64,000 nucleotides of DNA. Source: Escherichia coli (GTDB lineage: Bacteria; Pseudomonadota; Gammaproteobacteria; Enterobacterales; Enterobacteriaceae). Positions 4,509-40,451 of the stretch are shown here, piece by piece. A program made the position numbers and the translations under genes. The notes beneath the pieces were generated by a model that was given only the letters and a program-made list of their open reading frames with translations, was not told the DNA's origin and made no database searches. Location of the stretch: NCBI RefSeq assembly GCF_044324875.1, contig NZ_CP172185.1; one strand, given 5' to 3'. Within the stretch, counting starts at the first letter, position 1, and every line of letters starts with the position of its first letter.

Positions 4509-4828
4509 GTAACCACTATGCACACACAAAAAAACCGCTTGCCATGCCGCAATCAGTCAGGTTACATTTCCGCTGCACCTCATAAAACGGGTGCCGGGAT
4601 TGCAACCCCCGCTGACAACTACAGCGCACAACCGCGCCAGCGGTTTTTTTGTGCGTACCGTATCGCCACGTCTTTTTCGCGCCAGAATTATGGCGGGGCG
4701 TATGGGGCCGACTTCGGTCGGGCCGGTTTCTGTAGTTGCCGGTGGTTGCAACCCTGTACGTCTCGCCACCCAGAATTGCAACCTCTGGATGGTGAGTTTT
4801 CAAAACTTGCAACTACAGAGGCCACACC

Positions 4829-23282: not shown

Positions 23283-24179
23283 ATGCCTTCCGTTGACCTG
23301 TCACAGTTACCGGAACCGGCCATCATCGCGCAGCCGGATTTTGAGTCCATCCTGGCAGACATTAAAACCATGATGGTGAGCTCCTTCCCGGAAGAATACC
23401 GCGCCGCCGTCACCCGTGCCCTTACTCTGGAATCCGAGCCATTGAACATCATTTCCCAGGCCATGGCCTTTCGTGAAATGCTGCTTCGCCAGCGCATCAA
23501 TGAAGCCGCCCGCGCCTGCATGCTCAGCCACAGCCGGGGCAGTGACCTGGACAATCTGGCCGCCAACAACAACACCCGCCGCCTGGTCATTCATCCGGCC
23601 ACTGATACCACGGAAGCAGTGATGGAAAGCGACACATCGCTGCGTCTGCGTGCCCAGTCAGCCTGGGACGGCCTGAGTGTGGCCGGACCGTCCGGCGCGT
23701 ATGAGTATTTTGCCCGGAGCGCAAGCGGTCTTGTCCGTGATGCGCGCGCCATCAGCCCGTCACCGGCCACAGTCACCGTCTCCATCCTGTCAGCAGACGG
23801 TGACGGCACCGCCGGTGAGGCGTTACTGAACACGGTGCGCACCGCCCTGAATGCCGAGAACGTGCGCCCGGTTGCCGACCGCCTGACTGTGCAGAGTGCT
23901 ACCATCGTGAACTGGGTAATGGAAGCGAAGCTGTATTTTTATCCAGGGCCGGAGTCTGAACCCATGCTTGCGGCCGCTGACGCCGCTTTCCGTGCATGGC
24001 TGGCAGACCAGGGCCGTATCGGTCAGGACGTGGCCCTGTCAGCCATCACTGCAGCGCTGCATGTTCACGGTGTCCAGCGCGTTGAGGTCATAAAACCCAC
24101 GCAGAACATCACCATCAGTGACACTCAGGCAGCCAGATGTACCACATTCAGCATCAGCGAAGGAGGACGCAATGAGTGA
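23283..24179 (+). CDS. J: Baseplate assembly protein, P2 gpJ-like
   Basis: 298 aa. Confidence 0.8.
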   Translation: MPSVDLSQLPEPAIIAQPDFESILADIKTMMVSSFPEEYRAAVTRALTLESEPLNIISQAMAFREMLLRQRINEAARACMLSHSRGSDLDNLAANNNTRRLVIHPATDTTEAVMESDTSLRLRAQSAWDGLSVAGPSGAYEYFARSASGLVRDARAISPSPATVTVSILSADGDGTAGEALLNTVRTALNAENVRPVADRLTVQSATIVNWVMEAKLYFYPGPESEPMLAAADAAFRAWLADQGRIGQDVALSAITAALHVHGVQRVEVIKPTQNITISDTQAARCTTFSISEGGRNE

Positions 24180-24735
24180 CAGGAAAAAAACAGACAGCGC
24201 ACAGCACAGTACATCACTGCTTCCACCGTCCGCAGGGCCATTCATGCGCGCCACAGAGGCGACAGGAGTACGCATCAGTGCCATACCGGTGGACGCCGAC
24301 ACCCTGTGGTCGCCGGACCGCTGCCCTGCTCACCTCCTGCCCTACCTTGCATGGGCATGTTCCGTTGACAGCTGGGACCGCAACTGGCCGGAAGAGACCA
24401 GGCGACAGGTGATTCGGGACGCATGGATGATACATCGCCACAAAGGGACCATCAGTGCACTCCGCCGCATCGTTGAACCACTGGGCTACCTCATCCGTGT
24501 ATCAGAATGGTGGGAGTTTGACGGCTCGCCCGGGACCTTCACCATTGAGATTGGCACACTTGAAACCGGAGTAAGTGAAGAGCTGCATGAAGAAATGGAG
24601 CGTCTGATTGCCGATGCGCGCCCCGTCAGCCGCCACCTCGTGGGGCTTAGTATCATCCAGGAAATACACGGTGCCATTTACGCCGCTGCCGCAGGTTACG
24701 ACGGCGACATCATCACCATTTACCCGGAAGACTGA
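24172..24735 (+). CDS. I: Baseplate protein, P2 gpI-like
   Basis: AAGGAGGA RBS, start MSDRKK; ~187 aa. Confidence 0.7.
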   Translation: MSDRKKTDSAQHSTSLLPPSAGPFMRATEATGVRISAIPVDADTLWSPDRCPAHLLPYLAWACSVDSWDRNWPEETRRQVIRDAWMIHRHKGTISALRRIVEPLGYLIRVSEWWEFDGSPGTFTIEIGTLETGVSEELHEEMERLIADARPVSRHLVGLSIIQEIHGAIYAAAAGYDGDIITIYPED

Positions 24736-24738
24736 ACC

Positions 24739-26973
24739 ATGAGCACGAGAAAATTCAGAACCCTTATCACCGACATCGGGCTGGCAAAGCTGGCCGCAAC
24801 AACGGCGCCTGGCGGTAGACCTGTACGCCTTACGCACATGGCTGTAGGGGACGGCAATGGAGAGCTTCGTCAGCCGCAGAAAAACCAGACATCGCTTTAC
24901 AATGAGGTTTGGCGCCAGTCTGTCAACCGCGTCTTCACCGACCCGGAGAACCCGAACCGCCTCATCGCCGAACTGGTCATTCCTCCTGAAACCGGCGGAT
25001 TCTGGGTGCGTGAAATTGGTGTGTTTGATGATACAGGTACAATGATTGCAGTAGGAAATACCGCTGAAAGTTACAAGCCCACCAGAGAGGAAGGTTCAGG
25101 GCGGGCGCAGATATTCCGTGCAGTAATCACCGTCACCTCCGACGCCGTGGTGGAACTGGTCATGGACACAACAACAATTCTGCCGACCACGGACTACATT
25201 GATGAGAAAATGGCGGAACACGCACGTTCCCGTAACCACCCTGACGCGACACTGACAGAAAAAGGATTCACCCAACTGAGCAGCGCCACAAACAGCACCT
25301 CTGAAACACTGGCCGCCACACCGAAGGCCGTCAAGGCTGCATATGACCTTGCAGCCGGTAAAGCACCCGCCAGCCACACCCACCCGTGGAATCAGATAAC
25401 TGGTGTGCCATCAGCCTCGCTGACGGCAAAAGGCACCGTACAGCTGAGCAGTGCCACAAACAGTGAGTCAGAGACTGAGGCGGCCACCCCCAAAGCGGTT
25501 AAAGCCTTACACGATATGGTGACGAGCAAGTATACAGGACAGGATGCAACCACCGGACGCAAAGGCATCGTACAGCTGAGCAGCGCCACAAACAGCAATT
25601 CCGAAACACTGGCGGCCACACCGAAGGCAGTAAGTGATGCACTGAGCATGGCGTTCGTGAAGCCAACAACATCCCTGGGGGAAACAGACCTGAACACTCT
25701 GGGGCGTAAGGAAGACGCGGGAGATTATTACCAGCAGAGTGACTCAGGTGCGAGAACAGACAGAAACTATCCTGTAGAGAAGGCAGGAGAGTTACGCATC
25801 CGTGTTGGTGCATGGGGATTCTGCCAGCATGAATACACGAGCTGGGATCCGCCACGAAAATTTATCAGGACAGTTACCGGAAACTTTAACGGTAACGGCC
25901 CATGGTCAGAGTGGGTGGAGGTGACAAACACAGATGCAACAACTGGACGCAAAGGCATCGTACAGCTGAGCAGCGATACAAACAGCAATTCCGAAACGCT
26001 GGCGGCCACACCAAGAGCCGTCAAGGCTGCATATGACCTTGCAGCCGGTAAAGCACCCGCCAGCCACACCCACCCGTGGAATCAGATAACAGGTGTGCCA
26101 TCAGCCTCGCTGACGGCAAAAGGCACCGTACAGCTGAGCAGTGCCACAAACAGTGAGTCAGAGACTGAGGCCGCCACCCCCAAAGCGGTTAAAGCCTTAC
26201 ACGATATGCTGACGAGCAAGTATACAGGACAGGATGCAACCACCGGACGCAAAGGCATCGTACAGCTAAGCAGCGCCACAAACAGCAATTCCGAAACGCT
26301 GGCGGCCACACCAAAAGCTGTTAAAGCTGCGTATGACCTTGCCAACAGCAAAGCCTCGGCAGCCCACACTCATCGCTGGGCTCAGATCACAGACGCCCCT
26401 GTTTTTTCGTCTGTTGCCCGCGTCATCATGGGTAAACAAAGCATAAAAGATATTCTTGATTACTTTGGTTTAGGAGAAGGCTCGACGCTGCCAGTTGGCG
26501 TACCCGTTCCGTGGCCTTCGTCAAGACCACCTGAGGGGTGGTTACAGTGCAACGGTGCCGCATTCACGCGTACAAAATACCCAAAACTGGCGGTGGCCTA
26601 CCCTGACCTCAGGCTACCAGATTTGCGCGGGGAATTTATTCGTGGATGGGATGACCTGCGAATGATTGACAGGGGACGCTTATTGTTATCCACACAGGAA
26701 GCAACATATATTTGTACCGCCATACAGGCGTACCACGGCGTAGCGGGAGGTGCAGATATTCAGGCAGGGATTTCATTTGCATCACATGATAACGACATCA
26801 TAAACATAACCCCTGATCAACCCAGAACCGGTAACGGCATCCTGTACGGCACAAAACCAGTTGACAGATGGGCAATAGCCAGAGCCGGTAAGCTGGTGAG
26901 TAATGAAAAAGACAGATGGATAGCGATCAGACCGCGCAATATCGCTTTTAATTATATTGTGAGGGCAGTTTAA
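24739..26973 (+). CDS. H: Tail fibre protein, P2 gpH-like, with internal repeats
   Basis: 744 aa; conserved N-terminal domain followed by repeated LSSATNS-SET(L/E)AATPKAVKA motifs. Confidence 0.85.
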   Translation: MSTRKFRTLITDIGLAKLAATTAPGGRPVRLTHMAVGDGNGELRQPQKNQTSLYNEVWRQSVNRVFTDPENPNRLIAELVIPPETGGFWVREIGVFDDTGTMIAVGNTAESYKPTREEGSGRAQIFRAVITVTSDAVVELVMDTTTILPTTDYIDEKMAEHARSRNHPDATLTEKGFTQLSSATNSTSETLAATPKAVKAAYDLAAGKAPASHTHPWNQITGVPSASLTAKGTVQLSSATNSESETEAATPKAVKALHDMVTSKYTGQDATTGRKGIVQLSSATNSNSETLAATPKAVSDALSMAFVKPTTSLGETDLNTLGRKEDAGDYYQQSDSGARTDRNYPVEKAGELRIRVGAWGFCQHEYTSWDPPRKFIRTVTGNFNGNGPWSEWVEVTNTDATTGRKGIVQLSSDTNSNSETLAATPRAVKAAYDLAAGKAPASHTHPWNQITGVPSASLTAKGTVQLSSATNSESETEAATPKAVKALHDMLTSKYTGQDATTGRKGIVQLSSATNSNSETLAATPKAVKAAYDLANSKASAAHTHRWAQITDAPVFSSVARVIMGKQSIKDILDYFGLGEGSTLPVGVPVPWPSSRPPEGWLQCNGAAFTRTKYPKLAVAYPDLRLPDLRGEFIRGWDDLRMIDRGRLLLSTQEATYICTAIQAYHGVAGGADIQAGISFASHDNDIINITPDQPRTGNGILYGTKPVDRWAIARAGKLVSNEKDRWIAIRPRNIAFNYIVRAV
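25331..26315 (+). repeat. Near-identical ~295-bp direct repeats inside the tail-fibre gene
   Basis: 25331-25625 and 26021-26315 are almost identical at nucleotide level (offset 690 bp); shorter repeat at 25947-26015. Confidence 0.8.
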
Positions 26974-27584
26974 TGAGTAACACTGCAGTTCTGGATGAAA
27001 ACGGTATCGCCACTTTCGCAGGCGATATCACTGTATATCACTATGATGAGGAAACCCGGGAATACACCTCATCCTCTGTGGAGTATCTCGCCCTGGGGGT
27101 GGGTACCCCGGCACATTCATGCGCCGATGCCCCGCCAGAGGCAATGCCGGGTTACGTGATTTGCCGGACGTCCACGCTGGACGGGTGGGAGTATGTCCCC
27201 GATCATCGTGGAGAGACGGTATACAGCACAGAGAACGGTAATCCGGTCCAGATTACCCAACCAGGTGACTACCCGGAAGGGACAACGACAAAACAGCCTG
27301 CCACACCATGGGATACCTGGAACGGTGAGGCGTGGGTAACCGATACAGAACGGCAGCAAGCCGAAGAGCTGGAGGTTGCCAGACAGCAACGCAAGGAACG
27401 GGTGGATCAGGCGATGAAGTCCATCGACCTCATCAACCTTAAGTTGCGGGCAGGTCGCAGTCTGACACCAGAAGAAACGGCAAAACTGAATGCCGTGCTG
27501 GATTATATCGACGAGCTGAACGCACTGGATATCAGCACGGAGCCTGAAATAAGCTGGCCGGAAACACCACCAGAAATGGAATGA
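26973..27584 (+). CDS. G: Tail fibre assembly chaperone, P2 gpG-like
   Basis: 203 aa directly after the tail fibre gene. Confidence 0.75.
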   Translation: MSNTAVLDENGIATFAGDITVYHYDEETREYTSSSVEYLALGVGTPAHSCADAPPEAMPGYVICRTSTLDGWEYVPDHRGETVYSTENGNPVQITQPGDYPEGTTTKQPATPWDTWNGEAWVTDTERQQAEELEVARQQRKERVDQAMKSIDLINLKLRAGRSLTPEETAKLNAVLDYIDELNALDISTEPEISWPETPPEME

Positions 27585-27624
27585 GCGGGGAAAAGGAACG
27601 GGCATTCATAAATAATTCATCATG

Positions 27625-27652
27625 CAGGTGCCGCAAGAATGCGGCACATTAC
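27625..27652. terminator. Hairpin between convergent tail-fibre-assembly and gpU genes
   Basis: Perfect 8-bp stem GTGCCGCA-AGAA-TGCGGCAC at 27628-27647. Confidence 0.5.
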
Positions 27653-27654
27653 CT

Positions 27655-28143
27655 TCACATCAGATCATTTACGCCGCTTACTGTGGTATTCCAGACCGAA
27701 CTTAACTTCCCTTTCATTCCCGAAAGCATATCAGACACCGGCGACGAGGCCATACTCTCCCGCAAATCCTCATCACAGCGTTCCAGACTGACAGTGAACT
27801 CAATTTTTTTGGCCTTACCGTGGCGGTCAAGTTCGCTTCGCGTTGTGCGGACAGCCGTTATCACATACATGCCGTATATCTGCCCCACACCGTCAATCAG
27901 CGGCCATGGGCGACCAGTGTAAGCCTGCGTCGTTAAAAGGCTGAGGGAAACCTCACCGCCGGTAATTTCGGGATAAAGCACACCGGACAACGTGATCTGG
28001 TCGTCACCCGCCCCGATATACTGCCAGCTGGCCGAACGATTGATGCGTTCATTTTTAACGTGGCGCCAGGTTTTATTATGTTGCAGTTGTTGATGAGGCA
28101 GCGTACGCAACTCAAAAACAAACATGCCGTAAATCATCATCAT
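27655..28143 (-). CDS. U: Tail protein, P2 gpU-like
   Basis: 162 aa; recalled gpU motifs (GDDxITLxGVLYPEITGG, KPWPLIDG). Confidence 0.8.
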   Translation of the reverse strand: MMMIYGMFVFELRTLPHQQLQHNKTWRHVKNERINRSASWQYIGAGDDQITLSGVLYPEITGGEVSLSLLTTQAYTGRPWPLIDGVGQIYGMYVITAVRTTRSELDRHGKAKKIEFTVSLERCDEDLRESMASSPVSDMLSGMKGKLSSVWNTTVSGVNDLM

Positions 28144-28154
28144 GCGAGGTACTC

Positions 28155-31100
28155 CTAATCTCTGTCACGGAAACTACCGACTGTCTGGCGGATACGGCGT
28201 TCCATTTCCGCACGGACGGCATCACCCACCATTTTTGCCAGTTCGCGCGGGTTTTGCGTGTGAACATCATGCAGGTGAATATGCAGTTCGCCAGTTAATC
28301 CCCATGGTGCCGGCTCACTCTGGCGCGGTCGGGGCGATGCGGGGGATATGGGCTGGCGCACAGCCTCAACCACCGGACGGGATGTTGCCGCCATCACTGG
28401 TGTCATTAGCGGGGAGAACGTCGGCATGACATCGTGAGTCATAACCGGTTTGATCACCGGCGGAACCACTGGCGTAATATTACCGGACAGTACCGGACGG
28501 ACGACCGGAGGAATAACCGGCACATTATTCACGGACACCACCGGCTTCACGACCGGCGACACGTTCGCCGTGGTGGATATCAGCGGCGAAACACTGACAG
28601 GCGGTGGCGCTGGCAGCGGTGGCAACGAAGGCACACTGACCGACGGCACCTGCGGCAGTCTGACAGGTGGCTCACTGACACTACCCGGTAACAGGGAAGC
28701 TGCTCGGTTAAAGCGTTCCTCCTTCCACTCACCACGAACGGCCAGCGCTTCCGGCAGGTTTTTAAAGATAATATCGCCGGGACCAGCGCGTTTTTTCGCC
28801 TGTTTCGCCTCATCCAGCAGACCACCGGTGTTATCGACGATTTTGTTCAGGCGGCGCATAGTGCCGGTATTCTCCCCCGTCAGGGGTGGTTGCCCCCCTT
28901 TGGGTTTTTCGCCGTCTTTTTTATCCTCGTCCTTTTTCGGCGGATTAATGACGTTAACATCCGCCAGAAGCATGGCAGCTTTCTCGTTCAGCAACTCCTT
29001 CTGTTTTAGTTCTTCCGCCTTTTTCCGGGCGCGCTCAACCGCCGACGGAATCAGCCCGAGTTTTTCCAGCACCCGGGTTAATGAGTCAATCAGCAGCGTA
29101 ACCGGACCGGTCACCAGATTGCTGATAAACTCCCCTACCTTCTGCCCGAACGTACGCCCGGCTTCCGTGCACTTGTCCAGCTCATCCTTTGTTGTGCTTA
29201 CCGGCGCGAACAAATCCACGAACCACTGCCACACACGCCCGATTGTCTGCCCGACATACTCAAACAGCGGTCCCAGTGGTGCCACAGCCTCGCGCAGTGG
29301 CGTAAGCCCCTGCCACAGGCCGGACAAGAACCCGCCCACGACAGCCTTCAGCTGGTCCCAGTGCCGCCAGATAAGCACTGCCGCACCGACCAGTGTCGCC
29401 ACCACAAGGCCCACCGGACTTAACAGAAAACCCAGCGCCCCGCCAAGTGCGCCCACCGCACCACTCACCATCCCCCACAGTGCGGGCAGACCTGACAGTC
29501 TGAGCGCCAGTATTCCGATACCGCGCCCCAGTGAAATCAGTGCGCCGCCAGGTGAAGTGAACGCAGCCAGCAGACCACCACGCAGCGCGCCAAGTCCCGC
29601 CTGCACACCACGAAGCCGCCCCGCAACTACGCCCAGCAGTGCAGCAAACCGTCCGGCACCGGAGGTGATACCGACAAACAGCACGCGCCAGCCACCGATA
29701 CCGCCCAGCGGACCACCGAGTACGCCGCGCAGCTGCGTCAGTAACGGCAGCGCACGACCGAGGCCGGATGTGCCGGTCAGCAGGGCAAACCCAAGACGCA
29801 GTTTTGCCAGCGGCCCCATCAACACACCAGTGGCAAGTGACAGCGCCCCCATGGCCGCAACCGCAGCCAGCAGTACACCACCGGCAATCAGCAGTTGTTT
29901 TGTCAGTTCAGGGTGCGCCTGAGCCAGCGCGGTGACTTTCGCAATAACCCGGGTGAACGACTGCGTGACAGAACGCAGCGGCCCGTCAACGAGGTCAGCG
30001 ACACGGATACGCAGTCCTTCCCATGCGCTGTTCAGTGATTTCAGGTCACCGTCCAGGTTATCAGCCATAACACGGGCAGTGTGATTAAGTTCCCCGGTGG
30101 CCAGTTCAATCTCCTGCGTAAGACGGGGAAGATTATTTTCCCCCGCCGCAGTGACAAGATTCATCAGGGAAACATAGGACTCCTGCCCGGCAATAGCCCT
30201 GAAAAAGGAGACCTGCGCGGCATTACCGTATTTTCGGGTGGCCTGGTACAGCTCATTCAGGATATTTTCCATCCGGCGCATGTTCCCGTAAGCATCCTGC
30301 GTCTCCACGCCAAGCTCTTTCAGTGCCATTGCAGCGGCCTTCGGCGGATCAACCAGACGTGACAGACTGGCACGCAGCGCCGTACCTGCATCACTTCCAC
30401 GGATCCCCACACTGCCAAGGACACCCGTCATGGCTGCCGCCTGTTCAAGGGACAGGCCAAGTGAAGCTGCAACCGGACCCGTGTACTTCATGGTTTCACC
30501 CAGTGAACGGAGATCCGTATTGGTTCGTGTGAAGGTGGCGGCCAGCGTGTCACCCACGCGATCCATCTGGTCAGCGGACAGACCAAACTGTGTGAGGATA
30601 TTCGAACTGATATCGGCAGTCTGTCCCAGGTCCATCCCTGCAGCCATTGCCAGATCAAGCACGCCGGGTAGCGCCGCCTGTATGGCCTGTGGTGTGAAGC
30701 CGGCCATGGCAAGGAACGCCTGACCGCTGGCAGCATCACCGGCGGTAAACTGCGTTTCAGAGCCCAGCTTAATGGCCTGTTCGCGCAGCGCCTTAAACTG
30801 CGGACTGTTTTTGTCAATACGGGTCAGCGCCTGGACGCGTGACATCTCCTTACCAAAACTGACCGCCGGTTGCAGGAAACGTCCGGCCGCATAGCCGCCT
30901 GCCGCCGCCGTACCAACCGCCGTAAGTCCGACCGTTTTAAGTTTTCCCGCCGTCTCCTGAGCACGGGAATATTGCTGGCGTGCCTGCGTGACACGTGCCA
31001 GCGCCTGCCGTTCGCGTTCCAGCTGGTCGTTGTATTGCTGTGTTCGCCGTATGGCCTGTTGAATGGTGTTGTCACTGCCGGAAAGCGCAATACCGTGGCG

Positions 31101-31466
31101 CCGCAGCTCACCACCCAGTTCGCGCATTCGCTGAACTTCACGCGCACGGACCTCATTGAGACGCTCAAGTTTGAGGCTCAAATCGTTCATCAGCTTTTTC
31201 TGTTTGTCAGACAGCACGGTTCCGGCGCGCTGAATTTGCTGAAGTGCGCTTAACTGGCGTTGTGCCCGGGCAATGCCGTTTCCGGCCTTGTTTGCAGCCT
31301 CGCGGGCGCGATCAAATGAACGGGCGTGGCGTTCCAGGTTTTTGATCGCACCCTGCGTTCTCTGTATGGAGTCGCCAAGCTGGCCCATCATGCGACGGGC
31401 GTTTTCGGTGGGACGGGTCAGCCTGTCAACAGCGCTGAAGGCGACCCGTATATCAAGCGTTTTCAT
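28155..31466 (-). CDS. T: Tail tape measure protein, P2 gpT-like
   Basis: ~1100 aa, coiled-coil N-terminus, Gly/Ala-rich TM-like middle, Pro/Val-rich C-terminus; start MKTLDI overlaps the E' stop. Confidence 0.85.
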   Translation of the reverse strand: MKTLDIRVAFSAVDRLTRPTENARRMMGQLGDSIQRTQGAIKNLERHARSFDRAREAANKAGNGIARAQRQLSALQQIQRAGTVLSDKQKKLMNDLSLKLERLNEVRAREVQRMRELGGELRRHGIALSGSDNTIQQAIRRTQQYNDQLERERQALARVTQARQQYSRAQETAGKLKTVGLTAVGTAAAGGYAAGRFLQPAVSFGKEMSRVQALTRIDKNSPQFKALREQAIKLGSETQFTAGDAASGQAFLAMAGFTPQAIQAALPGVLDLAMAAGMDLGQTADISSNILTQFGLSADQMDRVGDTLAATFTRTNTDLRSLGETMKYTGPVAASLGLSLEQAAAMTGVLGSVGIRGSDAGTALRASLSRLVDPPKAAAMALKELGVETQDAYGNMRRMENILNELYQATRKYGNAAQVSFFRAIAGQESYVSLMNLVTAAGENNLPRLTQEIELATGELNHTARVMADNLDGDLKSLNSAWEGLRIRVADLVDGPLRSVTQSFTRVIAKVTALAQAHPELTKQLLIAGGVLLAAVAAMGALSLATGVLMGPLAKLRLGFALLTGTSGLGRALPLLTQLRGVLGGPLGGIGGWRVLFVGITSGAGRFAALLGVVAGRLRGVQAGLGALRGGLLAAFTSPGGALISLGRGIGILALRLSGLPALWGMVSGAVGALGGALGFLLSPVGLVVATLVGAAVLIWRHWDQLKAVVGGFLSGLWQGLTPLREAVAPLGPLFEYVGQTIGRVWQWFVDLFAPVSTTKDELDKCTEAGRTFGQKVGEFISNLVTGPVTLLIDSLTRVLEKLGLIPSAVERARKKAEELKQKELLNEKAAMLLADVNVINPPKKDEDKKDGEKPKGGQPPLTGENTGTMRRLNKIVDNTGGLLDEAKQAKKRAGPGDIIFKNLPEALAVRGEWKEERFNRAASLLPGSVSEPPVRLPQVPSVSVPSLPPLPAPPPVSVSPLISTTANVSPVVKPVVSVNNVPVIPPVVRPVLSGNITPVVPPVIKPVMTHDVMPTFSPLMTPVMAATSRPVVEAVRQPISPASPRPRQSEPAPWGLTGELHIHLHDVHTQNPRELAKMVGDAVRAEMERRIRQTVGSFRDRD

Positions 31467-31979
31467 GCTCTGCGTTCCCGCTGCGAAGGGCCGCCCGCTC
31501 ACGCCAGGCGACCACCTCGCCGGGATCCATCAGGAAGATTTCAGCGGGAGACCAGTTGAAAATAACGGCGATATCCGCCACAAAGTCTTCAATATGCTCA
31601 AAGGGCACGACGGTTATCAGCCTGCCGTCGCCGCCACGCTCTTCCCGCCAGAGTCCTGACCGGCCAAAAAATTAACCGCCACCCCGCACAGCTGAATAAA
31701 ATCAGCGGACCCCATGCGCTTAAGCAGAACCTCGTCCAGTCGCGGCGAAGTGACGCGCGGGAGTAACTCAAACATCGCGTCCGTTTTCATGTTCAGCACG
31801 TCAAGCAGTGACAGCCCGCGCAGTGAACCGGCCTGCTGTACAGCAGGCGTGATTTCCACATACGTGATTTTTTTGTTACCGAGCACAAGGGGCGTTTTCA
31901 GCGTCACGCCGCGCTCACTGGTCACGTCCGCCGCATCAGCACCGTCAGTAACAGGGGCAACAACCGGATTTTCTTTCAT
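31454..31979 (-). CDS. E: Tail assembly chaperones gpE (31617-31979) and frameshift extension E' (to 31454)
   Basis: E is a 120-aa ORF; a -1 frame is open from the slippery site to a stop at 31454 that overlaps the T start. Confidence 0.7.
31665..31671 (-). other. Programmed -1 ribosomal frameshift site (T TTT TTG) for E/E'
   Basis: Heptamer TTTTTTG in X_XXY_YYZ register within E, 15 codons before the E stop. Confidence 0.65.
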
Positions 31980-32029
31980 GCATAAAACCTCAAATCAGGG
32001 GGCGACGCCGCGCGCCGCCGTGGGAAACA

Positions 32030-32548
32030 TTAACCACCAAGACCAATCGCCGAGCGCACGCGGTCCGGGAAGACGTTTTTGCCGTCCTTGCGTTCGATGT
32101 GGTTCAGTAAATCAATCTCCAGCACCGGACGGTCGTTAATGCTGAGTTTGTAGTAGGTACTCCTGACCGCATAGGTGTGAGACGTGACCTCACCCTGTTT
32201 TGCCTCCCCCGTATCAATTTCCGTCACGCGGCCGCGAAGCTCAATTTCATACAGGTCGCTCTGCTCTTCATCGTTGTAGTACTCACCGACAAAGCGCAGC
32301 AGCGTACCGTCGATCGTGCCGCCGTACTTAAGGAACAGTTCGCGGGTCGGCCCGCCCATGGTGAAACTCGCATCCAGCGCGCCGTCATCCAGACCAAGGT
32401 CGATATTCACCGCGCCGGCCATACCACCACCGCGATAGGCTTCCGTTTTACGGGTCAGTTTGGGGGGCGTGAAGCCGGTCACCCTGCCAATCTGGTTCAC
32501 CCCGTCAGTAAACAGCGTGAACACCCTGAGATTTTTTGGTACGGCCAT
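32030..32548 (-). CDS. FII: Tail tube protein, P2 gpFII-like
   Basis: 172 aa directly downstream of the sheath gene. Confidence 0.8.
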   Translation of the reverse strand: MAVPKNLRVFTLFTDGVNQIGRVTGFTPPKLTRKTEAYRGGGMAGAVNIDLGLDDGALDASFTMGGPTRELFLKYGGTIDGTLLRFVGEYYNDEEQSDLYEIELRGRVTEIDTGEAKQGEVTSHTYAVRSTYYKLSINDRPVLEIDLLNHIERKDGKNVFPDRVRSAIGLGG

Positions 32549-33831
32549 TAAGCACCTCCAAGCGTCGCAAATGCAGGACCAAAGAATTCATCAGTAAACG
32601 TCTGGTAAAGTTCCATATCCTCAAGCGGCGGAACGGGCGTGTACTTGTAGCGGATACGCACGCGTCCCTGACGAAGTTCCGTGGTGCTGTTATCCACCAC
32701 GTCATACCAGCACTCCGCACCAACGAGACGTCCTGACGTAACCAGCGCATCCAGTTTTGCGCGAATTGCGCTTAACACGTCTTTCACATTAGCAGGGGTC
32801 AGCGGGGCATCAATCGTTTCAAACTGCGCTTCCGCAATGGAATCAGCCAGCACCTGAGCGGTTCGCGTGTACACCTCAAAGATATACGCCTTCGTTTCCG
32901 GCGTACGGTTGCCCCAGAAGCGGAAACCGTTACGGCAAATGATGGTAGTGATTTCCTTGTTGTTGAGATTGTTGGCATCGCTGTCTTCGGACTGAAGGGA
33001 CCAGAACACCGGGCTGGAAATACCCAGCACATTTCTTACCGGCACGTTGGACAGCGATTTATGCCAGCCCTGTTCGTGGTCAATACGTGCACGTAAACCG
33101 CAGGCGTACGCCGCAGCCGGGAAGACCTCATTAGCGCCGGATTTCGGGTTATGGGCGATGAAGTCCGGCCAGACCAGCATAAGTTCGCGCTCGTTAAATC
33201 TGGCGCGGTAGCTGATTGCATCGGCGGGCTTCTTGCAGTTGTGACAGCCCGCGTAGACAAATGCGCGAAGTTTTTCTGCAATTACACACAGGGATTTTGT
33301 GACAGCTTCAGTATCCAGTCCGGGCGCTGCGATGATGCGCGGACGGTAACCGATGGCATCATCCTGTTCAGCTATCAGAAGTGCATACATACCGGTATAA
33401 TTACCGTCGCCATCCGTGCCACCAATGACATACTGGTCCTGCGTTTTGTGTGGGTATACAGGATGTGCATCTTCAGACTCATCAATACCAAAAAATGCCC
33501 TGTCTTCAGGATCCAGATGACCGAATGATGTAACTCCTGTATCCGGGGCGCCCTGAGAACTGGCATCAGGAACGCGCACCACAATCACCTTCGTGCTCAC
33601 CTGGTCGGCGACAGCCTTAAGCGATTTGTAAAGCGTCCCCTTTGTGCCGGCCTTACCCAGCACATCACTGACGCGGGTCAGCAGTGTGGGTTTGTTCAGC
33701 GGGAACAGAGTTTCATCCGCGTCATCTGCCGTAGCCACAATACCAATAACACTGGAATCCACATCATTAATGGCGGTGGCAAGGCCGGTACTTTCCCTTA
33801 CGCGCGCACCATGAAAGCGTGTTTCACTCAT
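32548..33831 (-). CDS. FI: Tail sheath protein, P2 gpFI-like
   Basis: Start MSETRFHGARV resembles the recalled P2 FI start MSDYHHGVQV; ~427 aa. Confidence 0.85.
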   Translation of the reverse strand: MSETRFHGARVRESTGLATAINDVDSSVIGIVATADDADETLFPLNKPTLLTRVSDVLGKAGTKGTLYKSLKAVADQVSTKVIVVRVPDASSQGAPDTGVTSFGHLDPEDRAFFGIDESEDAHPVYPHKTQDQYVIGGTDGDGNYTGMYALLIAEQDDAIGYRPRIIAAPGLDTEAVTKSLCVIAEKLRAFVYAGCHNCKKPADAISYRARFNERELMLVWPDFIAHNPKSGANEVFPAAAYACGLRARIDHEQGWHKSLSNVPVRNVLGISSPVFWSLQSEDSDANNLNNKEITTIICRNGFRFWGNRTPETKAYIFEVYTRTAQVLADSIAEAQFETIDAPLTPANVKDVLSAIRAKLDALVTSGRLVGAECWYDVVDNSTTELRQGRVRIRYKYTPVPPLEDMELYQTFTDEFFGPAFATLGGA

Positions 33832-33992
33832 ATGTTTCACCCTTGTCTGGCTGGTTGATTTTGCGTAATCATTACCCACACACGCGGTAATCTCACCCCT
33901 TTGATGTTGTCTCCTGACAGCGACAACAAAACAGCCATTCAACGCCGCTGCGGTGCATGAAACCATTACAGAACGCACCAGGAGAGAACACC

Positions 33993-35084
33993 ATGAAAGA
34001 GCTGTCAGTTACCGTTCCGTCACCGGATATCGACATCACCATCAACAACAACACACTGGCAAACCTCACAGAGCGACTCATGACGCTGACCCTGACGGAT
34101 AACCGGGCCTTTGAGGCAGACCGCGTCACCCTCACCCTTGACGATACGGACGGGCAGTTACAGTTGCCACCACGTGGCGCACGCCTGAGAGTGATGATTG
34201 GCTGGCGAGGAGAATCACTGGTTAACAAGGGCACCTACGTCGTTGATGAGGTTGCGTGGGAAGGACCTCCAGATAAACTGATCATCACCGCCAGCAGCGC
34301 AGATTTTCGGGAAGAGTTCAACGTGAGGCGGGAGGTATCCTGGCACGACGTGACCGTAAAACAGGTTGTGTCAGCCATCGCTCACCGCTACGGCCTGAAG
34401 ACACAGATAAGCGAAATCCTCATGGATATCGAAATTGACCACGCTGACCAGACCGAAGAGAGCGATATATCCTTCCTGACCCGCATGGCTGAAATGCTGG
34501 GTGCGATTGCCACCGTAAAAAACGGCAGCCTGTTATTCATTCTGCCGGGTGGCGGAACCGGGCCGGACGGAAAAGCCCTGCCTTCGTTCGCCATTACCCG
34601 CAGCAGCGGCGACAGTCACCGCTTTCGCATTGCTGACCGTGATGCGTATACGGGGGTCCGGGCGCACTGGCTCGATCTGAAGTTCGGGCACAAGAAAAAA
34701 GTGAACGTGAAGCGACGCAGGGAAGCCGGGAAACAGAAACAGGAGAAGAGCAGCAGCCGGGAGGGTGATTACATGGAAGGCGCGGAAGGGAACGTCTACG
34801 TTCTGCGCAGGACTTACCAGAATGAAGAAACCGCACGACGTGCAGCTGCGGCAAAGTGGCAGGAGTTACAGCGGGGAGCAGCGGCATTCTCCATCACTCT
34901 GGCACGGGGTCGTGCCGACCTGTATCCCGAAATGCACGGCAGGGTAACAGGTTTTAAAAGCGAGGTGGACAATCAGGACTGGATTATTGCCAGGGTGGAG
35001 CACATCATAGATGAAAGCGGCTTCACCACACAACTGGAGCTGGAAGCGAAAATCCCCGAATGGATAGCAGATTCAGGCGGATAA
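33993..35084 (+). CDS. D: Tail protein, P2 gpD-like (late control D family)
   Basis: GGAGAG RBS before ATG at 33993; ~363 aa; followed by ogr as in P2. Confidence 0.75.
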   Translation: MKELSVTVPSPDIDITINNNTLANLTERLMTLTLTDNRAFEADRVTLTLDDTDGQLQLPPRGARLRVMIGWRGESLVNKGTYVVDEVAWEGPPDKLIITASSADFREEFNVRREVSWHDVTVKQVVSAIAHRYGLKTQISEILMDIEIDHADQTEESDISFLTRMAEMLGAIATVKNGSLLFILPGGGTGPDGKALPSFAITRSSGDSHRFRIADRDAYTGVRAHWLDLKFGHKKKVNVKRRREAGKQKQEKSSSREGDYMEGAEGNVYVLRRTYQNEETARRAAAAKWQELQRGAAAFSITLARGRADLYPEMHGRVTGFKSEVDNQDWIIARVEHIIDESGFTTQLELEAKIPEWIADSGG

Positions 35085-35127: not shown

Positions 35128-35379
35128 ATGTTCCGTTGTCCCCTATGCGGTGCATCCGCACGTATCCGCACCAGTCGCAATGAAAATGATTCAGGCACAG
35201 TTCGCCTGAAGTACTACCAGTGCAATAACCTCGAATGCGGGATCGGCTTTACCACACTGGAGGGTTTTAACAAATTCACATCAAAACGCGCCCCGTCGCC
35301 GCAGGGTACAGAGCGGATACCGTGGGAAGATTTTCCGGGATCTCACAGGGGGAATGCTCAGATGAATCTTGATATTTAA
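35128..35379 (+). CDS. ogr: Ogr/Delta-family zinc-finger late-gene activator
   Basis: MFRCPLCGASARIRTSR...YYQCNNLECG resembles the recalled P2 Ogr MFHCPLC...HQCQNVNC. Confidence 0.8.
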   Translation: MFRCPLCGASARIRTSRNENDSGTVRLKYYQCNNLECGIGFTTLEGFNKFTSKRAPSPQGTERIPWEDFPGSHRGNAQMNLDI

Positions 35380-35521
35380 GAACAATAATCAGGTTGAGAG
35401 GACATCATAAGGCAAGTAGATTAACGGCAGATACTTTCCCGCAACCACGGGCAAGTATTTAATTATCCATGATGAAATATGACCTAAATTGTTTTTTGCC
35501 CGCCGGAAAGCGGGCATTTTT

Positions 35522-35737
35522 TTATTCTTTTGTGGTTATGGGGTCATCAGGAACCACGTGCAGATTATATTTTTGTTTTTTTGGCGTTCCTCCGGCAGCA
35601 ACGAGTTCATCAATAAGACACTGACACGCCTGAACATCCCGGGCATGTCTTAGTTTCACCTTTATTGATTTAACCTTATCCTCACCGGAGGAGAAATGCA
35701 GTTCAATCTCAATATCGTTTCTTCGGAACAATCTCAT
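35522..35737 (-). CDS. Small hypothetical protein (71 aa); the only intact copy of a thrice-repeated gene
   Basis: AGGGGGG RBS; decayed paralogues at ~36840-36905 and ~37500-37560; palindromic AT-rich upstream region. Confidence 0.4.
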   Translation of the reverse strand: MRLFRRNDIEIELHFSSGEDKVKSIKVKLRHARDVQACQCLIDELVAAGGTPKKQKYNLHVVPDDPITTKE

Positions 35738-36094
35738 ACGCCCCCCTGAATATATCAGAAATGCTAGTATCGAAAAATGAGAAAACAGTTAGACAGGAGA
35801 AACATATTAACACAAATCATTTATACCTATAGATGAAATTATAATTTCATTCATGAATATGATAGATAACTATATTGTGAACAAAATGAAAAATGGCTAA
35901 ATTAAAAATGGGCATGGAGGAATGCCCGGTTATCAATATAATGTGACGTAGATCATTGTTTTGCCCGCCGGAGAGCGGGCATTTTTTTTGCGCCTGCCAT
36001 CGAGGCGCCTTCCCTGGCGCACACAAAGCAGCCCTGATTTTCCATGAAAACTTCAGGGTTGAGCTGCGGGCACAAAGTGAGTAGATTAGCTACG

Positions 36095-36189
36095 GGTACC
36101 TCCCCCTGACAACAGGAAGGGTGTCCATTATCCATGATATACAAACGAAAAGTCTTGTTTTTTGCCCGCCGAAGCGCGGGCATTTTTTT
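36095..36189 (+). ncRNA. Candidate sRNA unit S1 (promoter plus intrinsic terminator)
   Basis: -35 TTGAGC (36059-36064), 17-bp spacer, -10 TAGATT (36082-36087), then ~95 nt with a CCTTCC/GGAAGG stem-loop ending in the hairpin and T-run. Confidence 0.35.
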
Positions 36190-36315
36190 ATGCATCAGAC
36201 AAGATACAGCCCACCCCAACTGACACCTGAAATATTGCCGCAACAAAAAGAAACAGTTAAATTACGCGCGGGTGCCTTTCGGCTGATGGCCGGAGGGAAA
36301 ACCTGAAGGCCGGAT

Positions 36316-36549
36316 GTGGAAAGGCCCCGGAAAACATTTCTGTTTAACCGAGGCCCTAACCGCATTACCTTGACAAGTGAAAGGTTAGCGCCTCTCCGGA
36401 AAAGGAGCAAGTGCTATGTCGCAAAAATCGCTTACGGCCATCACGTTCTGCGTGACGGCAATCCTCATCATCTGGATATTGCACGGTTCGCTGTGCGAAA
36501 TACGGATGAGCTTCTGGGGAGCGGAGTTTGCGGCGTTCTTACAATGTAA
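36316..36549 (+). CDS. mok-like overlapping reading frame of the hok-like locus
   Basis: 77-aa ORF starting ~100 nt upstream of and overlapping the hok-like ORF in another frame. Confidence 0.4.
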   Translation: MERPRKTFLFNRGPNRITLTSERLAPLRKRSKCYVAKIAYGHHVLRDGNPHHLDIARFAVRNTDELLGSGVCGVLTM

Positions 36550-36556
36550 GAAGTAA
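36416..36556 (+). CDS. Hok/Gef-family type I toxin (46 aa)
   Basis: MSQKSLTAITFCVTAILIIWILHGSLCEIRMSFWGAEFAAFLQCKK: TM helix then SLCEIR and E(V/F)AAF motifs as in plasmid R1 Hok; AAGGAG RBS. Confidence 0.7.
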   Translation: MSQKSLTAITFCVTAILIIWILHGSLCEIRMSFWGAEFAAFLQCKK

Positions 36557-36645
36557 GGAAACCGCGACGGGGGAGCAATCCCCCGTCAATCGGTTGCCAG
36601 GGTAAGGTCGATAAGGCACCCTATCTCACAGACATGAACAACAAA

Positions 36646-36676
36646 CCCGCAGCATAAAAACTGCGGGTTTTCTTTT
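36646..36676 (+). terminator. Intrinsic terminator of the hok-like transcript
   Basis: Hairpin CCCGCAG-CATAAAAA-CTGCGGG followed by TTTTCTTTTT. Confidence 0.6.
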
Positions 36677-37265
36677 TGGTGTCCTCACCGACTTGAAACA
36701 GTGATCAGACTATAAGACAAAGCCCGCAATGTTGCGGGCTTACTCTACCTCTCGAAAATGTGGTCACTGCGTGGACATACGCTGATACAAATCCTTTATA
36801 TCAATAAATTAAATCTTTGTTTTTTTCATCAACAATGATTTAACCTTATCCTCACCGGAGGAGAAATGCAGTTCAATCTCAATATCGTTTCTGTGGAACA
36901 GCCTCATAAGACAACCTCCTGAATTCATCAGAAACACAGTCAACTGAAAACCAGAAAGCAGACAAACAGTGGACACACATTAATACAAATCATTTATACC
37001 TATAGATGAAATTGCAGTTTCATCTATAACATGACAGGTAACAATATTGTGAAAAAACTCAAAACTCGTTAGATTAAAGACGGACAGAGCAATGCTACTT
37101 TATCAATAACATGTAACCTGTACTTCCTTATTTTGCCCGCCGAAGCACGGGCATTTTTTTTGCGCCTGCCATCGAGGCGCCTTCCCTGGCGCACACAAAG
37201 CAGCCCTGATTTTCCATGAAAACTTCAGGGTTGAGCCAAAAGCACAAAGACAGTAGATTAACCAC

Positions 37266-37359
37266 GGGTGCCTTCCACCTGACAACAGGAAGGGTGTCCA
37301 GTATCAATGACAGACAACTCACATTGCTGTTTTGCCCGCCGGAAAGCGGGCATTTTTTT
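37266..37359 (+). ncRNA. Candidate sRNA unit S2
   Basis: Same -35/17 bp/-10 (TTGAGC...TAGATT at 37231/37254) and terminator architecture as S1. Confidence 0.3.
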
Positions 37360-37914
37360 ATTCTTTTGTGGTTATTGGGTCATCAGGAACAACATGCAGA
37401 TTATGCTTTGATTTTTTTGGTGTTATTACAGCAGCAACGAGTTTATTAATAAGACACTGACATGCCTGAACATCCCTGACATATCATAATTTCACTTTAT
37501 TTTTTTAGCTTGTCCTTTCTGGAGCAGAAATATCTCAACATCGTTTCTGTGGAACAACCTCATTTGCCCCTGAATGTATCATAAATATCAGCATCGGAAA
37601 ACCAACAGCAATACAGAAGAAACATGTTAATGCAAATCACTTATACCTATAGATGAAATTACAGTTTTGTTCATAAATATGATAAGTAACTATATTGTGA
37701 ATAAAATGAAAACTAGCTAAATTAAACGTGGGCATGGTGGAATGCCTCGTAATCAATAATACATGATCCGTACTTCCTTGTTTTGCCCGCCGGAAAGCGG
37801 GCATTTTTTTGGCGGTTACCATCGCCTCACCTTCCTGGTTCACATGAAGCAACCCTGATTTTCCATGAAAACTTCAGGGTTGAGACAAAAGCACAAAGAC
37901 AGTAGATTAACCAC

Positions 37915-38007
37915 GGGTACCTTCCACCTGACAACAGGAAGGCTGTCCAGTATCAATGACAGACAACTCACATTGCTGTTTTGCCCGCCGGAAAGCGGGC
38001 TTTTTTT
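37915..38007 (+). ncRNA. Candidate sRNA unit S3
   Basis: -35 TTGAGA 37879, -10 TAGATT 37902, terminator hairpin 37983-38000. Confidence 0.3.
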
Positions 38008-38112
38008 GGCAGTTATCATAGCCGCACCTTCCTGGCACATATGAAGCAACCCTGATTTTCCATGAAAACTTCAGGGTTGAGACAAAAGCACAAAAACAGT
38101 AGATTAACCACG

Positions 38113-38208
38113 GGTGCCTGCCACCTGACAACAGGAAGGGGTGTCCATTATCCATGATATACAAACGAAAAGTCTTGTCTTTTGCCCGCCAAAGCGCGGG
38201 CATTTTTT
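38113..38208 (+). ncRNA. Candidate sRNA unit S4
   Basis: -35 TTGAGA 38077, -10 TAGATT 38100, terminator hairpin 38184-38201. Confidence 0.3.
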
Positions 38209-38420
38209 TATGCATCAGACAAGATACAGCCCACCCCAACTGACACCTGAAATATTGCCGCAACAAAAAGAAACGGGTGCCTTTCGGCTGATGGCCGGAG
38301 GGAAAACCTGAAGGCCGGATGTGGAAAGGCCCCGGAAAACATCTGTGTTTAACCGAGGCCTGACCCTTCCTACCGTGACAAGTGGAAGGTTAGCGCCTCT
38401 TTGTAAAAGGAGCAAGCGCT

Positions 38421-38561
38421 ATACCGCAAAAAACGATTATTGTTGGCATTTTATGCCTGACAATAACCCTGGTCATCTGGATGGTCCACGATTCGTTATG
38501 TGAATTCAGCTTTGATATCTGGGGAGCGCGTTTTGCGGCGTTCTTGCAGTGTAAACCGTAA
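38421..38561 (+). pseudogene. Degenerate second hok-like copy
   Basis: Start codon ATG replaced by ATA, LCEIR changed to LCEFSF; the matching mok-like frame (38321-38503) is truncated. Confidence 0.6.
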
Positions 38562-38711
38562 GAAACCGCAGCGGGGGAGAAATTCCCCGCTATCCGGTTG
38601 TTGGGGTGGGCCGATATGGCGCCCTTTCCCTGTAGAGACAAAACAAAAAACCAGATTTGCCCGCCATTGAGAGGGCTTTTTTGTCACCCTCACCAGTGAG
38701 GGCATCATCAT

Positions 38712-39137: not shown

Positions 39138-40451
<1,314 letters not shown>

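Follow-up and report, generated by a model that had tools for sequence, protein, structure and literature searches.

Modules of a P2-family prophage tail-fibre gene in Escherichia coli are probably reshuffled by homologous recombination

The window analyzed here, a 64-kb stretch of Escherichia coli DNA, contains at 24739..26973 on the plus strand a P2 gpH-like tail-fibre gene encoding 744 aa with the module order N-A-B-K-A-B-T, recognized from its ORF, its translation and matches to Pfam PF12571, PF03406 (six times) and PF07484. Upstream lie baseplate genes, where Pfam places Baseplate_J at 23283-24179 and Tail_P2_I at 24118-24735 in agreement with the public annotation, and directly downstream a plus-strand gene at 26973..27584 encodes a tail-fibre assembly chaperone of the gpG/Tfa type (203 aa; PF02413, Caudo_TAP, E 4.5e-27; phrog_105 ‘tail fiber assembly’, E 2e-87). 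The fibre gene has counterparts of 99.7-100% identity in 22 complete-genome records, where they are annotated as ‘tail fiber protein’. Its identification as a tail-fibre gene in a preliminary description of the locus thus agrees with its own PF12571, PF03406 and Collar domains, with gpJ and gpI upstream and with the Caudo_TAP gene downstream. Minus-strand ORFs across the repeats (e.g. 25392-25697 and 26082-26369), which have neither family matches nor annotation in relatives, were discarded as spurious, and so was a 113-aa ORF at 27581-27922, which is without family matches and unannotated in every relative.

The protein begins with a tail-collar-fibre domain (aa 4-151, 24748..25191; PF12571, E 6.1e-50) that is presumed to attach the fibre to the baseplate. 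In the shaft Pfam finds six PF03406 units (E 1.3e-104; 342 bits against a cut-off of 22), in keeping with the repeated LSSATNS..SETLAATPKAVKA motifs read from the sequence earlier. Module parsing resolved A modules of 56 aa (168 nt, with an HxH motif), B modules of 44 aa (132 nt) and a 390-nt module K, composed of a repeat head and a pyocin-knob-like domain. All lie on the plus strand, in the order A1 (aa 176-231, 25264..25431; PF03406 repeat with HTHPW as its HxH motif and the linker SASLTAK), B1 (aa 232-275, 25432..25563; PF03406 repeat without HxH, linker DATTGRK), the repeat head of K (aa 276-299, 25564..25635; GIVQLSSATNSNSETLAATPKAV), the knob-like domain between the two repeat blocks (aa 300-398, 25636..25932), A2 (aa 406-461, 25954..26121), B2 (aa 462-505, 26122..26253) and T (aa 506-744, 26254..26970). 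Module T combines the last PF03406 unit, which carries an HTHRW motif and aligns to Mu gpS 5YVQ (residues 110-166), with a predicted receptor-binding tip that includes the Collar domain (PF07484, aa 587-634, 26497-26640, E 2.7e-13) and matches the T4 gp37 tip 2XGF in sequence (E 3.5e-12). The knob-like domain shows the antiparallel beta-sheet knob fold of R1/R2 pyocin fibres; no Pfam model covers the knob, and NCBIfam returned nothing meaningful for fibre or knob. By analogy with T4 gp37 and the pyocin shaft, where Fe is bound by the HxH motifs of three symmetry-related chains, the HTH motifs at aa 213-215 (A1), 443-445 (A2) and 543-545 (T) are putative Fe-coordinating HxH sites.

Two segments of the gene are almost identical at the DNA level. 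Gapless alignment of 25331-25625 with 26021-26315, the pair of ~295-bp copies with few differences noted in the preliminary description, gave 6 mismatches in 295 nt, and the maximal near-identical block extends slightly further, to 299 nt with 6 mismatches (25327..25625 and 26017..26315, both on the plus strand). Copy 1 comprises the 3' two-thirds of A1, the whole of B1 and the first 62 nt of the K head, and copy 2 the 3' two-thirds of A2, the whole of B2 and the first 62 nt of the T head. The duplicated block can accordingly be written as ‘A tail, B, next head’, present once on each side of the knob. The copies differ at positions 25401, 25482, 25519, 25578, 25608 and 25623 of copy 1 (T/A, G/C, G/C, G/A, A/G and G/A); five of these differences are synonymous and one exchanges Val and Leu, and the longest exact stretch common to both copies is 80 nt. 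Both copies follow the reading frame of ORF 24739-26973, with an offset between them of 690 nt, i.e. 230 codons and a multiple of 3. No third copy of the block was found elsewhere in the 64-kb window, and Tandem Repeats Finder detected no tandem array between 24000 and 27600, because the copies are interspersed and not arranged head-to-tail. It is clear that a 299-nt match at 98% identity cannot have arisen by chance in 64 kb.

The borders of the block are informative about its origin. Within the core, 98 of 99 codons specify the same amino acid and only 5 of those 98 differ synonymously. In the 28 codons directly upstream, in contrast, 8 of the 20 codons with the same amino acid differ, and in the 20 codons directly downstream all of them do (6/6). 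Weaker similarity (~75-80% identity) extends 5' of the block from ~25243/25261, and the first 63 nt of A1 are peculiar to that module, with 16-17 mismatches to the other A modules, while B1 and B2 are 99% identical in nucleotide sequence. This leap in synonymous divergence at both borders points to a recent duplication or a gene-conversion tract and not to constraint on the protein, and we therefore read the identity of the repeats as a trace of recent DNA copying by one or the other route. If old paralogous modules had instead been held identical by the requirements of the peptide, without recent DNA exchange, as might be suspected from the conservation of PF03406 modules at the protein level in many phages, then neither the near-identity of synonymous sites inside the core and their strong divergence outside it nor the abruptness of the borders would be expected. 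Other module pairs, which share 79-96% amino-acid identity, have only 67-90% nucleotide identity, and we regard protein selection alone as a very improbable explanation.

Comparison with related prophages revealed a series of alleles. When 120 close homologues and 8 loci were parsed into modules, 13 architectures emerged, and at least seven besides the window allele ABKABT (744 aa, 22 complete-genome records) sit on chromosome-scale contigs and encode 626-868 aa. Among them are ABKAAT and AABKAT (both 756 aa), AABKABT (800 aa), AABKAAT (812 aa), AABKAAAT (868 aa) and the knob-less ABAAT (626 aa). Architectures 700, 856, ABKABAT 800 and ABKAAAT 812 were found on short contigs only and could be chimeric assemblies of polylysogens. 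Few differences separate the alleles in their unique parts, with 0-4 nt in the N-terminal 525 nt, 0 of 297 nt in the knob and 0-7 nt in the final 600 nt. The predicted receptor-binding tip is nearly invariant, and the number of modules varies from 2 to 4 before the knob and from 1 to 4 after it. The repeat number thus differs among related prophages, and the recombinational length variation anticipated in the preliminary description is found in prophages that are otherwise almost the same. Its choice of the ~295-bp block as the varying unit was correct in part: this block does vary, but so do whole modules of 168, 132 and 390 nt, and the knob-like domain had been missed. The A2 module of the window is identical (0 of 168 nt different) to the second pre-knob A of two other alleles (L002 and L003), and at the six sites that tell the window copies apart, other alleles have the variants mixed between their copies. 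In a second P2-like fibre family the A module likewise occurs 1, 2, 3 or 4 times. The knob is found at 29 places in 25 complete genomes, with a DNA identity of at least 99.7% throughout; these places are separate prophages, and no two-knob allele, the reciprocal duplication, was present in the complete genomes. Three strains harbour two or three related prophages with differing fibre alleles, which provides recombination partners within one cell. Megablast of the gene against a phage collection gave only partial repeat matches, to phage 503046 and the Mu-like PhiKM, and no sequenced phage in that collection carries the window allele; our literature searches found no account of this particular allele series.

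One of the alleles retains the point at which modules were joined. The junction module of the knob-less allele in SCU-115, a complete genome, is identical to the K head over nt 1-59 and to the first post-knob A over nt 25-168; the two parts overlap in a 35-nt identical stretch, and exactly 390 nt have been removed. Judged from its sequence, this K-head/A hybrid carries the signature of one homologous crossover.

The corresponding event between the 299-nt copies would delete 690 bp and leave A-B-T, a protein of 514 aa. Exact look-up of seven such predicted proteins found three of them in public data, only on short-read metagenome or draft contigs, whose sources include ERZ27280763, ERZ27280452, GCA_008917245.1 and GCA_958430685.1, and several of these contigs have multi-switch mosaic patterns at the diagnostic sites. 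Assembly collapse could explain the 514-aa versions at least as well as true recombination, and we have set them aside as proof of the latter. The same observations raise the question whether the window itself was misassembled, with a wrong second copy or 690-nt spacing and a different true copy number. Many IMG/VR contigs stop inside the gene, the ‘collapsed’ versions are confined to short-read assemblies, and a 447-nt orphan contig equals window 25562-26008, exactly the inter-repeat interval, although the look-up (P0121) placed it in a sample other than those of the 514-aa contigs. The assembly risk raised in the preliminary description is thus real in general. The 2235-nt gene is, however, 99.7-100% identical in the 22 complete-genome records, which represent ~15 distinct strains from several countries, and the exact 744-aa protein is present on several hundred contigs of up to 5.8 Mb. 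The copies hold six fixed differences with a maximum exact match of 80 nt, which standard assemblies are able to resolve. Given this recurrence, the window allele is not an artefact and its copy number is backed by the complete-genome records; we give misassembly of the window hardly any credence. The identity of the 744-aa allele in hundreds of contigs also shows that the repeats are stable over the time scale of strain spread.

Tail fibres are classic targets of diversification systems, as in the Mu G segment and the BPP-1 DGR, and the repeats are in frame, so we considered whether the locus could be a DGR template/variable pair, an invertase-switched segment or a contingency locus that slips at high frequency. 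A DGR target was rejected because the prophage has no annotated reverse transcriptase, each copy is part of the coding sequence and the differences are not directed at adenines. A segment switched as in Mu G, P1 C or e14 P was rejected on the absence of an annotated invertase, the presence of a single tfa gene and the lack of significant inverted repeats, those of at least 20 nt around the gene occurring only at chance level with 70-74% matches. A simple-sequence contingency locus or tandem VNTR was rejected likewise, as Tandem Repeats Finder detected no array and the units of 132-690 nt are interspersed with unique sequence. Combined with the stability of the allele across hundreds of isolates, this makes programmed diversification of any type extremely improbable.

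Horizontal mosaicism, in which the post-knob A-B block was imported from the fibre gene of another phage via PF03406 homology, is more credible but still unlikely. PhiKM and the fibre genes of a further 587 complete E. coli genomes do contain these repeats at 80-90% nucleotide identity, some strains are polylysogenic for two or three related prophages, and fibre-segment exchange among unrelated phages is described as established where PMC8986868 cites Haggard-Ljungquist 1992 and Sandmeier 1994. The donor, however, must be 98-100% identical, and such identity occurs only within this allele family, so any exchange would have been between sister alleles, which is a version of the explanation given below and not a true rival.

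Collectively, the comparisons make it likely that the modules of this fibre are reshuffled by ordinary homologous recombination and that the window array is one product of this process. Module heads and tails share long identical DNA stretches, and the length of every module is a multiple of 3 nt. Unequal crossover or non-allelic gene conversion between modules, whether inside a single prophage or between related ones resident in the same cell, would therefore add, remove, move or homogenize whole modules and leave the reading frame intact. The A-B-K-A-B-T array of the window would then have arisen by recent copying of an ‘A-B-head’ tract across the knob. The evidence for rearrangement is comparative throughout, and from it we infer the order of events and a dependence on host RecA. 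The rearrangements may also alter the length of the fibre, the distance from knob to tip and adsorption, and an influence of module variation on host range is plausible. Such a mechanism is ordinary and well precedented, and is the expected route of phage fibre evolution.

A more speculative reading, which we consider possible but doubtful, is that the modules may serve as portable homology arms. The knob would then be a cassette that can be inserted or excised, the module number on each side would be tunable, and the knob-tip distance would act as an adjustable ‘ruler’ selected for the thickness of the surface polysaccharide on E. coli hosts. Architecture changes among the alleles outnumber point substitutions (0/297 in the knob). 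If the ‘ruler’ reading is true, the knob is a secondary and the tip the primary binding site, and the excess of architecture changes reflects positive selection on fibre geometry and not neutral repeat instability.

In practical terms, short-read assemblies are not to be trusted for the fibre genes of this prophage family, given breaks within the gene or a possible 690-bp collapse, and fibre gene length alone (514-868 aa) is no sign of different genes. The allele series offers natural variation in shaft length and in the presence of the knob, combined with an identical predicted receptor-binding tip, and could serve to test fibre geometry against adsorption, e.g. once engineered into P2-type phages or tailocins. 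With its finished genomes and exact crossover junction, the series is a clean further example of module reshuffling, an established idea that it leaves unchanged.

The prophage resembles the P2 family in its backbone (int, cox, A, Q, P, O, N, M, L, V, W, J, I, D, ogr), and its fibre resembles gpH of P2 and other Peduovirinae, with the gpG (Tfa) chaperone, in the N-terminal PF12571 domain, the order J-I-H-G and the PF02413 Tfa gene directly 3'. Unlike P2 gpH, it has a shaft in which five PF03406 modules and the T head are combined with a knob-like domain placed internally, and a tip with a T4 gp37/gp12-type collar domain. Set against the gene order of P2, the FI-FII-E-T-U tail operon of the window is on the opposite strand. 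PF03406 repeats are also present in Mu gpS (PDB 5YVQ/8JU3), whereas the units of the window fibre follow two fixed formats, 56 aa long where HxH is present and 44 aa where it is absent, and some of them are near-identical in DNA. Compared with the knobs of R1/R2 pyocins (PDB 6CL5, 6CL6, 6CT8/6CU2; Buth et al. 2018, PMC6116203), the window fibre has a single knob instead of a tandem pair, flanked by PF03406 modules instead of a helix-plus-turn rod and shaft, and its role in ligand binding is putative. Repeats tune the length of fibres, which evolve by motif duplication, and HxH motifs bind iron (PMC6116203); the pyocin knob has been described as a mobile pseudo-domain (PMC12143355).

Tetart et al. 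1996 and 1998, as listed in PMC10791045, reportedly describe conserved-motif recombination in T-even gp37 and duplication of a small domain that expands host range. The window fibre is similar to this adhesin in that its architecture is altered by duplication inside the gene and by recombination between repeated, conserved motifs, and its collar domain matches the gp37 tip 2XGF. The T4 gp37 duplications were reportedly selected in the laboratory and are said to have been shown to change host range, whereas the variants of the window fibre are natural prophage alleles known from sequence, in which the shaft varies and not the adhesin tip.

The tail-fibre ORF at 24739-26973 (+, 744 codons, 2235 nt) is of the P2 gpH type and carries an N-terminal phage tail-collar-fibre domain (aa 4-151, Pfam PF12571), an array of six 'phage tail fibre repeat' units (PF03406), a pyocin-knob-like domain (see below) and a collar-type tip with a Collar domain at aa 587-634 (PF07484). 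By sequence match the tip resembles the T4 gp37 tip (2XGF) and a short-tail-fibre structure, and the last fibre repeat resembles Mu gpS (5YVQ/8JU3). Modules were defined by splitting the protein at every 'G-x-V-Q-L-S-S' head, which gave the architecture N-A-B-K-A-B-T. N is the N-terminal domain (175 aa, residues 1-175), A a 56-aa PF03406 repeat with an HTHPW motif and the linker SASLTAK (A1 176-231, A2 406-461), and B a 44-aa PF03406 repeat with an ALHDM.. end and the linker DATTGRK (B1 232-275, B2 462-505). K (130 aa, residues 276-405) consists of a 24-aa repeat head, a ~99-aa unannotated domain and DATTGRK, and T (239 aa, residues 506-744) of a repeat, HTHRW and the collar tip.

A near-identical duplication within the fibre gene had been proposed in the preliminary description and is borne out, since 25331-25625 and 26021-26315 form an ungapped alignment with six mismatched positions over 295 nt (25401, 25482, 25519, 25578, 25608 and 25623). 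Comparison of the gene with itself, shifted by 690 nt, showed the near-identical block to be 299 nt long (25327-25625 and 26017-26315); the shift equals 230 codons and both copies are in frame. On the 5' side the repeat extends back to ~25243/25261 with identity down to ~75-80%, while 3' of 25625 identity is at background at once, and no third copy is present in the 64-kb window. The duplicated tract, found once 5' of K and once 3' of it, takes in the tail of A and the entire B module and reaches 62 nt into the head that follows. Tandem Repeats Finder reported nothing for the pair because unique sequence separates the copies, and the gene does not qualify as a tandem slippage locus.

Within the 299-nt core the same residue is encoded at 98 of 99 codons with only five synonymous differences, the sixth difference being Val/Leu. 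Among the 28 codons directly upstream, 8 of 20 same-residue codons differ in the codon used, and among the 20 directly downstream 6 of 6 do so; other module pairs show 79-96% amino-acid identity but only 67-90% nucleotide identity. Because the borders are abrupt and the silent sites between them nearly identical, the tract points to recent duplication or gene conversion and not to protein constraint. The 3' border is a forced end of homology, since the knob follows one copy and the A-like part of T the other.

Close homologues share the N, K and T parts and differ in their module strings. The alleles found were ABKAT (700 aa), ABKAAT and AABKAT (756 aa), AABKABT and ABKABAT (800 aa), AABKAAT, AABAKAT and ABKAAAT (812 aa), ABKABAAT (856 aa), AABKAAAT (868 aa) and the knob-less ABAAT (626 aa); chromosome-scale contigs vouch for ABKABT, ABKAAT, AABKAT, AABKABT, AABKAAT, AABKAAAT and ABAAT. 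Compared with the window, the alleles on these contigs are 0-4 nt apart in the first 525 nt, 0-7 in the last 600 nt and 0 in the 297-nt knob, and across 25 complete genomes all 29 places with knob DNA show an identity of no less than 99.7%. Judged from this near-invariant N-terminal, knob and tip DNA, architecture has changed faster than point substitutions built up. Between the window's post-knob A and the A that stands second before the knob in the 756- and 812-aa alleles, 0/168 nt differ, so one and the same module variant precedes the knob in some alleles and follows it in another, and the six sites separating the window's copies are distributed differently between the copies in other alleles.

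The suggestion that such repeats allow recombinational length variation is supported by this series of whole-module alleles, and also by an exact junction in SCU-115, a finished genome whose fibre allele lacks the knob. Here nt 1-59 of the third module equal the K head and nt 25-168 the A that comes first after the knob in the 812-aa alleles, the trace of a single crossover in a 35-nt identical stretch with loss of exactly the 390-nt K module. A second P2-like fibre family in IMG/VR (60% identical) has 1, 2, 3 or 4 A modules in proteins of 527, 583, 639 and 695 aa, so that in this fibre type module number varies generally. In three finished genomes, TUM9803, Ch1 and F374 (locus L060), two or three related prophages coexist and their fibre alleles are not the same, those of TUM9803 being 744, 812 and 868 aa (NZ_CP135671.1: 3709446-3711680 and a further locus, L059). 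The co-resident prophages of these chromosomes are closely related members of the P2 family whose fibre genes differ only in module architecture, and such relatives provide recombination partners inside one cell.

The repeats had also been regarded as a risk for assembly collapse, which holds in general but not for the window's own allele. Many IMG/VR contigs stop inside the fibre gene, and a 447-nt orphan contig of a draft assembly (GCA_044080055.1 DBADNZ010000348.1) equals window 25562-26008, the interval between the repeat heads; apart from the K module it contains only the beginning of the following A, has both ends in shared module-head sequence, and directly illustrates how short-read assemblies fragment at the module repeats. 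Crossover between the 299-nt copies is predicted to give N-A-B-T of 514 aa. Of the seven predicted 514-aa sequences, three have exact counterparts in the public collection, spread over 12 contigs of 3-30 kb that all come from short-read metagenomes or drafts. These contigs show six different patterns at the six sites diagnostic for the copies, three with several switches, which is no proof of collapse because finished alleles also have shuffled sites; the contigs cannot count as real recombinants. The whole 2235-nt gene of the window recurs at 99.7-100% identity in 22 complete-genome records that represent ~15 different strains, isolated in several countries and mostly from poultry or humans, and the 744-aa protein is found exactly or near-exactly on several hundred contigs, the largest of 5.8 Mb. 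The window's repeat arrangement is not an artefact.

Between the copies lies the ~99-aa segment (25636-25932), which matches no Pfam or NCBIfam model. An exhaustive profile-free search found it in 254 cluster representatives, all fibre-like proteins, where it is nearly always internal and often present in 2-4 copies. An AlphaFold2 model from a 40-sequence alignment was confident (pLDDT 90), and its best solved Foldseek matches were the R1 and R2 pyocin fibres 6CL5, 6CL6 and 6CT8 (prob 1.0, TM 0.52-0.61); the matches below these were other phage receptor-binding proteins that have knob-like domains. On these matches the segment is a pyocin-knob-like domain, a fold described as a mobile pseudo-domain of fibres (PMC12143355) with a probable role in surface binding (PMC6116203).

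The surrounding DNA is E. coli chromosome, where the fibre gene is part of a P2-family prophage that sits between dmsA and serS and has the usual genes int, cox, A, Q, P, O, N, M, L, V, W, J, I, H, G, D and ogr. Baseplate_J and Tail_P2_I ORFs lie upstream of the fibre gene and a Caudo_TAP fibre-assembly chaperone (tfa, 26973-27584, +) downstream, Pfam and PHROGs agreeing. The genes for gpU, tape measure, E/E', tube and sheath are on the minus strand (27655-33978), flanked by tfa and gpD (33957-35084, +). In P2 gene order the FI-to-U tail operon has the opposite orientation, and the operon is thus inverted relative to P2; an inverted repeat of at least 40 nt flanking it was not found, and the arrangement is common to all relatives examined. 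In E. coli LH10-b-1 (NZ_CP100530.1 3140196-3158046) the same prophage is a ~18-kb remnant that keeps integrase, cox and tail/baseplate/fibre genes, has a frameshifted tape-measure gene and is without replication, portal, terminase, capsid and lysis genes, and in NRZ14408 the tape-measure gene of the prophage is interrupted and the prophage carries an inserted ISEc12. Within the early part of the window's prophage, gathering-level Rfam matches to isrK (4575-4650, +, 60 bits) and C4 antisense RNA (4686-4773, +, 80 bits) adjoin, suggesting a regulatory module that is P1-immI-like or of the IsrK type. The interval from ogr (35128-35379) to serS (39138-40430) contains a nest of direct repeats (35494-38600; spacing ~0.65, 1.2 and 2.0 kb, 66-99% identity) with sub-threshold sok-like RNA matches at 36270-36429 and 38275-38432 (46-48 bits, gathering score 59); the Hok-like ORF at 36416-36556 is the one intact, and the second hok copy looks decayed. 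Elsewhere, a tRNA (53809-53893) and an RtT RNA (53940-54074) are present, and an isolated 28-nt CRISPR-DR4 match (54176-54203, minus strand) adjoining a 54-nt direct repeat pair (53882/54060) is probably chance or REP-like, not an array.

Neither a reverse transcriptase nor an invertase was found in the P2-family prophage, and the fibre gene fits neither a DGR target nor an invertase-switched segment. The rearrangements would instead proceed via general homologous recombination, by unequal crossover or non-allelic gene conversion, either inside a single prophage or between related ones in the same cell. An A-B-head tract copied across the knob may have given rise to the window's allele, one plausible route being conversion of an AABKAT- or ABKAAT-like allele followed by an A1 x A crossover losing one pre-knob A. 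Module number would set shaft length and knob-to-tip spacing, and the HTH motifs may bind metal, with gp37 and pyocin shafts as precedent (PMC6116203). Since the tip, the presumed receptor binder, is nearly invariant among alleles, any host-range effect would stem from geometry or knob presence and not from a new adhesin. A published description of this particular allele series was not found in the literature. Duplication of repeated motifs and recombination between them have long been recognised as a route of fibre evolution (Haggard-Ljungquist 1992 and Sandmeier 1994, cited in PMC8986868; Tetart 1996 and 1998, among the references of PMC10791045; Buth 2018, PMC6116203).
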